Origin: Candidatus Thorarchaeota archaeon
GTDB lineage: Archaea; Asgardarchaeota; Thorarchaeia; Thorarchaeales; Thorarchaeaceae
Direction of reading: 5' to 3'
DNA: 26,317 nucleotides
Assembly (NCBI GenBank): GCA_046758445.1
Contig: JBHIAE010000040.1
Location: 1 to 26,317, forward strand
Position 1 is the first letter of the stretch. Each line of letters begins with the position of its first letter. A program made the position numbers and the translations under genes. The notes under the pieces were generated by a model, which was given only the letters and a program-made list of their open reading frames with translations, did no database searches and was not told the DNA's origin. This document shows, one piece after another, positions 4,305-5,693 of the stretch.

Positions 4305-5693
4305 TCATTTCTTCCTCTTAGAGGAACGAGAGGGAGTCATCAGAAGGTCTATGGACCCGGTCCCAAGTGGAATGAGCTGGCCGAGAATCACATTCTCTGT
4401 AATGCCTCTCAATGGATCTGTGGTTCCGGCAATCCCTGCTCCTAACAAGTGCTTGATCGTCACTTCAAAAGCTGCTCTGGCAAGAGCGCTGTTCTTTGAG
4501 CCCGAGATGCCATGTCTACCGATTTGCCTTATTGCTCCATCGGCAGTCATCATGTCAGCAACCAGAATGATATGACGAACATCAACATCCATTCCCTGTT
4601 CATTGAGTACACTCATGGCTTCTTTGATGATTGCATTACGTGTTGCCTCTATGCCAAGGACTTGGTATATCTCCCTGAGATTGTTCGTGTATACCTTGTG
4701 CGAATCTATTCCCCCGATCTCAAGTGCGTCTTGCAGGTTGGACCCTTCAGTATGGAGGACGTAGCCGCCGCCCTCCTTTCGAATGACCACGTGAGTCACG
4801 TCATTGATCCCCTTCACTCGCACCTCGCGTATCTTCTCGCTCAAGCGCTGAAGATCTGCAAGGGTATCGTTTGCCGGATAGACGAAGATTACGTTGTCAC
4901 CGGTTTCTACTTCGCCCTTGGCCTTGATTTTAGCCTGAATTGCTTCGGCGACGCTCTCTACGGTCAGGCCTTTGTCTTCCATCAACTCAGGGTCAAGTCT
5001 GATGTCAATGGCTTGTCTTAGAAGGTCAATTGACACATTGCTTGCTACACTCTCGACCAAGACCATCTCGATGTCACGAGCGATTCTCTTGACCTCATTG
5101 CGATCCCCAGCAATCTCATCCGCCAGGTGAATCTTCATCGTAGGCGTACTGGGATTGTTCCGTGCGTCGACAATCTCTATGAGACGTGGCAGACCCTGTG
5201 TCACGCTGAGTTCAGCTACTCCTGCATAGTGGAATGTTCGTAGCGTCATCTGCGTTCCAGGTTCGCCTATGCTCTGCGCGGCAACCGTGCCCACAGCCTC
5301 ACCGGGCTCAACGAGTGACATCTCATATGATGCTATCACGGTGTCGCATATCTCGTCAAACTCCTTTTTTGTGAGAGTGTGCTCCCTAATCTTGGTGCCA
5401 AGTTCATTCAGCACCTTGGGTGGAAGTCGGCGCTCATCTCTCATCTTGGTAAGCCGCTTCTCCATGTACTTCTCGATGCCTTCAACAGTAGGTTTGGTTG
5501 TCTTTGGAGGCTTCTTGACCCTGGTTGTCTTTGGCTTCTTAGCGGGCACCTTCTTTGGCTTCCTAGCGGGCGTCTTCTTCGGCTTCTTGGCAGGTGTTTT
5601 CTTTGGCTTTGTCGCTTTCTTCTTGGATTCCGTCTTTGGACTCTTTGCGGTCTTCTTGGTAGACGTCTTCTTCGCCTTACTAGTCTTCGACAT
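4305..5693 (-). CDS. rpoA2: DNA-directed RNA polymerase subunit A'' (Rpo1C) with a ~70-aa Lys-rich N-terminal extension
   Basis: [30 protein letters not shown] trigger loop, [19 protein letters not shown]; GGAGG SD upstream; start ATG 5693 or GTG 5696. Confidence 0.98.
5511..5606 (-). repeat. Four tandem 24-nt coding repeats ([32 protein letters not shown])
   Basis: Read directly from the sequence: 96 nt = 4 x 24 nt within the RpoA'' N-terminus. Confidence 0.9.

Follow-up and report, generated by a model that had tools for sequence, protein, structure and literature searches.

A lysine-rich N-terminal tail, predicted to be disordered, on RNA polymerase subunit A'' in three genera of a Thorarchaeal family

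RNA polymerase subunit A'' (RpoA'', Rpo1C) of a Candidatus Thorarchaeota archaeon opens with a tail of about 68 residues that is rich in Lys, Thr, and Pro and predicted to be disordered, and three genera of a single Thorarchaeal family have positively charged tails in this position. The gene lies in the window, by which we mean the whole stretch of 26,317 nucleotides analyzed here (contig JBHIAE010000040.1 of assembly GCA_046758445.1); coordinates given without a contig or locus name refer to it. With moderate confidence, we read the appendage as a translated, disordered, polycationic tail that has evolved by repeat slippage and that would act as an electrostatic tether to nucleic acid. Our search of the literature on polymerase tails or extensions in Asgard archaea and Thorarchaeota found no description of it.

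Results

The rpoA'' gene and its operon

The open reading frame of rpoA'' occupies 4305-5696 on the minus strand and gives a translation of 463 residues (Table 1). It matches TIGR02389, the curated RpoA'' equivalog model, with 485.5 bits against a cut-off of 420.65, which identifies the product as RpoA''; profile positions 2-366 of 367 align to residues 91-453 only and leave the tail uncovered. Pfam RNA_pol_Rpb1_5 (PF04998) covers residues 119-404 (E = 4.8e-55), and the best PDB matches of the protein are archaeal Rpo1C chains (E = 4e-115). By the Pfam identities of the neighboring ORFs, the gene order is rpoB-rpoA'-rpoA''-rpl30e-nusA-rps12; rpoA'' stands where it is expected, and the locus is a standard archaeal RNA polymerase operon. 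The rpoB gene (8366-11737) lies upstream of rpoA', and the true start of rpoA' is probably an internal Met near 8366, where rpoB ends.

A gene for a TPR-repeat protein of 540 residues (673-2295, minus strand) lies between rps12 and rps7 and breaks this usual pair. No Rpb5_C gene was found upstream of rpoB in the window. Elsewhere in the genome, two adjacent genes (contig C31, about 10594-11858, minus strand; L072:794-2058) encode long Rpb5/RpoH-like proteins of 189 and 205 residues; both have a C-terminal Rpb5_C domain, are unlinked to rpoB, and are free of a lysine tail. A histone-fold protein is encoded in the same genome.

Table 1. Features of the rpoA'' region and of the contig end, in window coordinates
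Feature	Coordinates	Strand	Evidence
Disordered K/T/P-rich N-terminal tail of RpoA'', about 68 residues from the ATG	5490..5693	-	Translation, composition, AlphaFold2; uncovered by TIGR02389 and Pfam
24-bp tandem repeat encoding octapeptide units (TPAKKPKK and variants)	5528..5609	-	Tandem Repeats Finder
ATG start codon of rpoA''	5691..5693	-	ATG-TCR-AAG (MSK) context in relatives
GGAGG Shine-Dalgarno-like motif, 9 nt upstream of the ATG	5703..5707	-	Sequence; position conserved in relatives
Folded core of RNA polymerase subunit A'' (Rpo1C), stop codon included	4305..5489	-	TIGR02389, Pfam, PDB matches
rpoA' (Rpo1N), TAG stop at 5709-5711	5709..8483	-	Pfam Rpb1 domains 1-5, ORF list
Start of rps7 (uS7), truncated at the contig end, with a second and longer N-terminal extension rich in lysine, alanine, proline, and glutamate	2..358	-	Translation; full-length G007 ortholog

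Start codon and translation of the tail

The TAG stop of rpoA' is followed by the GGAGG motif, nine bases, and then ATG-TCG-AAG, with the ATG sitting 15 nt after the stop. The same succession of stop, GGAGG-like motif, 8-10 bases, and ATG-TCR-AAG (encoding MSK) recurs in nearly all of 17 related genomes, whether their A'' is tailed or tail-less, and in the tail-less relatives the protein runs from MSK through a few residues into a conserved MEKRF helix. Since tailed and tail-less relatives share this start context, the tail appears to be an insertion just after the common MSK start rather than an upstream mis-call, and it is most likely translated from the ATG at 5693. The open frame itself extends back to a GTG (5694-5696), which is simply its first start-type codon.

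A tail that is not made as an N-terminus would require either a downstream start (MEKRL or MRDER) or read-through of the TAG, which would turn it into an internal linker. Met codons do exist at residues 78 and 85, and rpoA' and rpoA'' share a frame in this genome with a single TAG and five codons between them (5691-5711). However, the upstream start keeps its GGAGG-ATG(MSK) context, also in tail-less relatives, and the open frame is maintained through variable repeats in 121 clusters of related sequences. The two frames agree in 7 of 17 relatives, which is roughly chance, and two of the seven have a second in-frame stop; the shared frame looks coincidental, and we rejected a read-through fusion of A' and A'' as a conserved design. 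We regard this alternative as highly improbable, including the start at a downstream Met (MEKRLTK) for which the earlier note had allowed, given the conserved context at the upstream ATG. In one Asgard genome of another family (G031, contig C94), rpoA' and rpoA'' form one uninterrupted frame of about 1300 codons, i.e., an unsplit largest subunit.

Composition, repeats, and predicted disorder

We counted 28 Lys, 2 Arg, 2 acidic residues (D+E), 13 Thr, 11 Pro, 6 Ala, and 5 Ser in residues 1-71 (window 5693-5480), with Ser and Thr making up 25% of the tail and a net charge of about +28 (about 69 residues). Translation and residue counts bear out the stretch of about 70 K/T/P/A/S-rich residues that the earlier note described ahead of the folded subunit, and the TPAK, TPAR, and SPK motifs that it listed are all present. 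It had also counted four 8-residue repeats. Octapeptide repeats exist, as three good copies and one or two decayed ones: Tandem Repeats Finder returned a period of 24 bp with 3.4 copies, 82% matches, and a score of 108, and the encoded units comprise a stretch of 16 residues and VPAKKPKT, followed by a decayed TRVKKPPK. AlphaFold2, run on a 61-sequence alignment, gave pLDDT of 38-48 and no secondary structure at residues 1-69, placed the first A'' helix at residues 71-88, and modeled the core confidently; the proposed disorder therefore stands as a prediction (pLDDT < 50 over residues 1-69). A Pfam search of the tail region (residues 1-95) returned no family at E <= 0.01, H1 and HC2 models included.

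Conservation and variation among relatives

The tail is present in all 121 of the closest A'' clusters, defined at 90% identity, where it measures 35-76 residues (median 54) and carries a net charge of +6 to +34 (median +16); the tail of the window is near the top for both. The composition of the related tails is narrowly constrained, at K 34%, T 23.5%, A 14%, S 11.5%, P 6.4%, D+E 4%, and hydrophobic residues 4.7% (Ser and Thr together average 35%), with R (0.5%), N+Q (0.3%), and G (0.7%) scarce. Asn, Gln, Arg, and Glu are one-step mutational neighbors of lysine codons, and the rarity of these neighbors points to selection on composition rather than drift. Predicted disorder combined with high net positive charge across the relatives agrees with the class of lysine-rich nucleic-acid-binding tails.

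Only the window and its nearest relative share the octapeptide, and alignments of the relatives contain no conserved tail column beyond MSK, unlike a CTD-like repeat domain. Indels in the tail among the three closest genomes are all in frame (16 codons, or two repeat units, fewer in G010 and six codons more in G007). Non-synonymous to synonymous codon differences in close pairs were 13:10, 9:3, and 10:6 in the tail and 15:69, 14:87, and 14:80 in the core. This pattern points to a tail whose sequence is free to vary, with its presence and composition under selection.

Distribution in Asgard archaea

TIGR02389 was run against 301 Asgard genomes, and the N-termini were inspected in the longest of the matching frames; the majority of RpoA'' frames in Asgard archaea span 390-420 codons. 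In two genera (g1 and g5), one of them that of the window, the tail occurs in every sampled genome with the gene; the other of the two is represented by 22 genomes with frames of 447-527 codons. A third tail-bearing genus (at least two genomes) belongs with them to the same Thorarchaeal family. Neither the other genera of the family nor the longest-frame examples of other Asgard families showed a tail among the matches listed, which comprised all but 148 lower-scoring ones. An Asgard-wide distribution was accordingly rejected, the tail occurring only in three genera of one family among the matches listed. Compared across Asgard N-termini, tail presence and positive charge hold in the three genera; the repeats and the S/T-P-x-K sites on which the earlier note had laid weight are not conserved. 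That typical archaeal RpoA'' lacks such a tail is confirmed by solved A'' chains, which have 391-397 residues and align from query residues 73-89.

The A'' core tree joins one of the tail-bearing genera to a genus without the tail (support 98/95), which implies at least one extra gain or loss of the tail; the tree is built from a single gene and leaves the base of the family without resolved branching. One bin (G286, contigs C26 and C143) has two rpoA'' copies, a tail-less one of 410 codons and a tailed one of 463 codons, and is probably mixed.

Other N-terminal extensions of A''

Residue 74 of the query aligns with approximately residue 976 of human RPC1, and the boundary between A' and A'' falls at position 66 of the Pfam Rpb1 domain-5 profile. 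We take this border, from the domain borders of Pol II, to lie just after the bridge helix, in the foot region. By sequence alignment, the tail would project from where A'' corresponds to the end of the Rpb1 foot region; the literature that we searched on the foot domain does not say where the A'' N-terminus lies.

Other extensions occupy the same end of A'' in distant archaea. An A'' of Undinarchaeales (P0185) begins with about 100 residues of lysine-rich tandem repeats, labeled as PF07382 below threshold, and the proteins of its 90% cluster vary in length between 378 and 527 residues, consistent with variation in repeat number. In Thermoplasmatota and several other lineages, A'' opens with a module of about 60 residues that these proteins have in common and that leads into a basic linker (P0221, P0190, P0178, P0143, P0186, P0193, and P0171, residues 1-80). 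Five helices are predicted in this module (mean pLDDT 78). Its best Foldseek matches, weak but consistent, are to the RAD51/RadA N-terminal (HhH)2 domain and to the C-terminal repeats of NusA (TM 0.5-0.6 over 55-60 residues, E 0.1-0.7). An hhalign alignment with the helix-hairpin-helix (HhH) domain of the eL32 described below is weak (E = 3.6e-4, probability 37%), and hhalign found no match to the HhH region of topoisomerase VI subunit A. Pfam, applied to ten other N-terminal extensions, returned only sub-threshold matches to HC2 and HHH_5. These distant examples were picked from representatives at 50% identity, many of them fragments or fusions, and yield no clean count across Archaea.

With moderate strength, the examples suggest that the N-terminal end of A'' repeatedly acquires modules of the kind that bind DNA without sequence preference. 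A more far-reaching idea, which we put forward as speculation and think improbable as a whole, is that the A'' N-terminus would be a general "handle port" of archaeal RNA polymerase, into which several lineages have independently plugged DNA-gripping modules: lysine tails in the Thorarchaeal genera and Undinarchaeales, and an (HhH)2-like module with a basic linker in Thermoplasmatota and others. The Thorarchaeal grip might then be tunable by lysine acetylation or by Ser/Thr phosphorylation, adapting the enzyme to histone-packed DNA.

Lysine-rich tails elsewhere in the genome

A six-frame scan of the whole assembly identified 13 ORFs with comparable lysine-rich segments, A'' included. The 12 other carriers are the ribosomal proteins uS7, eL32, and uL18, subunits A and B of topoisomerase VI, an FKBP, a Ras-like GTPase, two HEAT-repeat proteins, an HdrA/FlpD-like protein, a LarC-like protein, and one protein with no family match. 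Roughly half of the 12 (six, the three ribosomal proteins and both topoisomerase subunits among them) handle nucleic acids. In eL32 (contig C1, 66106-66897), an N-terminal HhH domain (Pfam HHH_5, E = 2.3e-10) is attached through a lysine/proline-rich linker. Topoisomerase VI subunits B and A, both K-rich, are encoded at 686-2866 and 2845-4998 of contig C60, and subunit A is extended at its N-terminus by about 320 residues, in which K-rich stretches flank two HhH motifs.

The uS7 carrier is the frame cut by the contig end, which we assigned to rps7 through a protein search in relatives. Its full-length ortholog in the sister genome G007 (L066:325-1407) has an extension of about 186 K/A/P/E-rich residues before the S7 domain (Pfam Ribosomal_S7, residues 187-361); the gene order around rps7 in G005 and G011 differs from that in the window. 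The extension is limited to a subclade of the genus, and uS7 frames have 219-239 codons in five other genomes of the family, tail-bearing ones included. Its distribution differs from that of the A'' tail, which indicates that tails on different proteins have separate histories.

Carriers of this variety bear on the possibility that the A'' tail is a tolerated by-product, i.e., that slippage-prone repeats of lysine codons expand at permissive protein ends and have no dedicated role. We grant this reading some probability, as a minority view. It would account for 13 ORFs with K-rich segments of which several are metabolic or chaperone proteins, for the fast turnover of tail sequence and length with its high non-synonymous change, for the absence of the tail from most genera of the family, and for the different and younger distribution of the uS7 tail, since tails would come and go. 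On the other hand, there is no loss of the tail and no shortening below 35 residues in the 121 clusters or the three genera, though repeats contract easily; the charge is always positive, with R, N, and Q nearly absent, which indicates selection on composition; and basic or HhH-like modules have been gained independently at the same end of A'' in distant archaea. Retention, constrained composition, and convergent fusions argue against pure neutrality and are compatible with a weak or generic benefit.

Discussion

We favor the tether as the working explanation because lysine tails with a DNA-binding role have precedents (Rpo13 and actinobacterial topoisomerase I), because other tail carriers in the genome handle nucleic acids, and because fusions at the same end of A'' are convergent. 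The tail would arise and change by in-frame slippage of short lysine-codon repeats, with selection acting on its presence and composition (K with T, A, S, and P, and few R, N, Q, G, acidic, or hydrophobic residues) rather than on its sequence. It would most likely serve as a sequence-independent electrostatic tether to the phosphate backbone of DNA, and possibly of nascent RNA, which may raise the local affinity of the polymerase for nucleic acid or its dwell time there. Our analysis shows the gene, its start context, the predicted disorder, the composition, the distribution, and the mode of evolution; we infer binding, the kind of nucleic acid bound, and any effect on transcription. Several observations count against the tether: sister genera of the same family live without a tail, the core tree indicates that tails are gained and lost, and similar tails occur on proteins with no obvious nucleic-acid role (the HdrA-like protein, FKBP, Ras-like GTPase, LarC-like, and HEAT-repeat proteins). 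Tails on such proteins fit a habit of the lineage as well as they fit a dedicated function.

The closest precedent on a polymerase is Rpo13 of Sulfolobus, which has a disordered C-terminal tail with 11 lysines in 22 residues (PMC3479171; PMC2675907), and deletion of this tail abolishes dsDNA binding in EMSA (PMC3479171). Like the tail described here, it is lysine-rich and of restricted phyletic range (Sulfolobales/Desulfurococcales); it is invisible in crystals and needed for sequence-independent binding of dsDNA. Rpo13 differs in that it forms a small subunit of its own, whose helix-turn-helix core docks between Rpo5 and the clamp head, and in having a C-terminal tail of about 20 residues together with an acidic N-terminal one. 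The Thorarchaeal tail, by contrast, has about 68 residues, belongs to the catalytic subunit A'' itself, at its N-terminus, and is unrelated to Rpo13 in sequence. The second precedent is TopA of Streptomyces, whose lysine repeats stabilize the enzyme-DNA complex and confer processivity (PMC5714199). Here, too, the lysine repeats are specific to a lineage and variable in length, sit on an essential enzyme that acts on DNA, and are conserved in composition and not in sequence. The actinobacterial repeats differ in being bacterial, C-terminal, and on another enzyme, whereas the Thorarchaeal tail is known from sequence.

The same charge could serve another partner. The tail might bind RNA rather than DNA, either the nascent transcript or the ribosome in transcription-translation coupling, or it might drive clustering of polymerases with polyanions. 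Three of the other tail carriers are ribosomal, and a mechanism based on charge does not separate RNA from DNA; but topoisomerase VI subunits with similar tails act on DNA, Rpo13 and TopA bind DNA, and we found no specific support for RNA binding or clustering. We consider this version unlikely.

The composition of the tail resembles that of H1 tails, as had been proposed. Like H1 and Chlamydia Hc2 (PF07382), it has K far above R, accompanied by A, P, T, and S, is disordered, and is built from short tandem repeats. It differs from H1 in having neither the H1 globular domain nor a Pfam match nor a strict SPKK, and in sitting on an enzyme rather than on an architectural protein. The likeness to the CTD of Rpb1 is that of a disordered repeat appendage on the largest polymerase subunit. 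The CTD, however, is C-terminal and neutral, consists of conserved YSPTSPS heptads, and is read by specific factors, whereas this tail is N-terminal on A'' (mid-Rpb1 by alignment), is polycationic, lacks a conserved motif, and is found in three genera only among the matches listed. The earlier note was right that the two sequences are unrelated; the functional analogy that it drew is unsupported, given the other position, the missing motif, and the narrow range.

A phospho-regulated platform of the H1 or CTD kind would have kinases switch the S/T-P-x-K sites. The tail of the window has two looser [ST]Px[KR] sites (TPAK and TPAR), it and its relatives have the Ser and Thr contents given above, and two close relatives bear a precomputed Pfam label HC2 (PF07382, H1-like). 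Yet among 113 related tails for which motifs were counted, [ST]Px[KR] is present in 17 and [ST]P of any kind in 38, with 75 having no [ST]P at all. The strict SPKK-type motif [ST]P[KR][KR] counts zero in the tail, and conserved sites of the CDK or SPKK type were rejected on these counts. There is furthermore no conserved motif and no Pfam match for this tail, which stands at the N-terminus of A'' rather than at the C-terminus of Rpb1 and is confined, among the matches listed, to three genera. Such a platform is very unlikely in our judgment. Of the functions that the earlier note proposed, charge-based binding to DNA or chromatin is the one we favor, and phospho-regulation and the formation of condensates are speculative. 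The narrow distribution, the different position, and the lack of a conserved motif also mean that the tail has no bearing on the origin of the eukaryotic CTD.

If the tail tethers the polymerase, as we favor, then some Asgard archaea carry, as part of their catalytic subunit, a function that in Sulfolobales comes as a subunit of its own, Rpo13, and that actinobacteria have attached to topoisomerase I. The independent acquisition of modules at this end of A'' by distant archaea would then mark this surface of the enzyme as a recurrent site for tuning how the polymerase holds its template.
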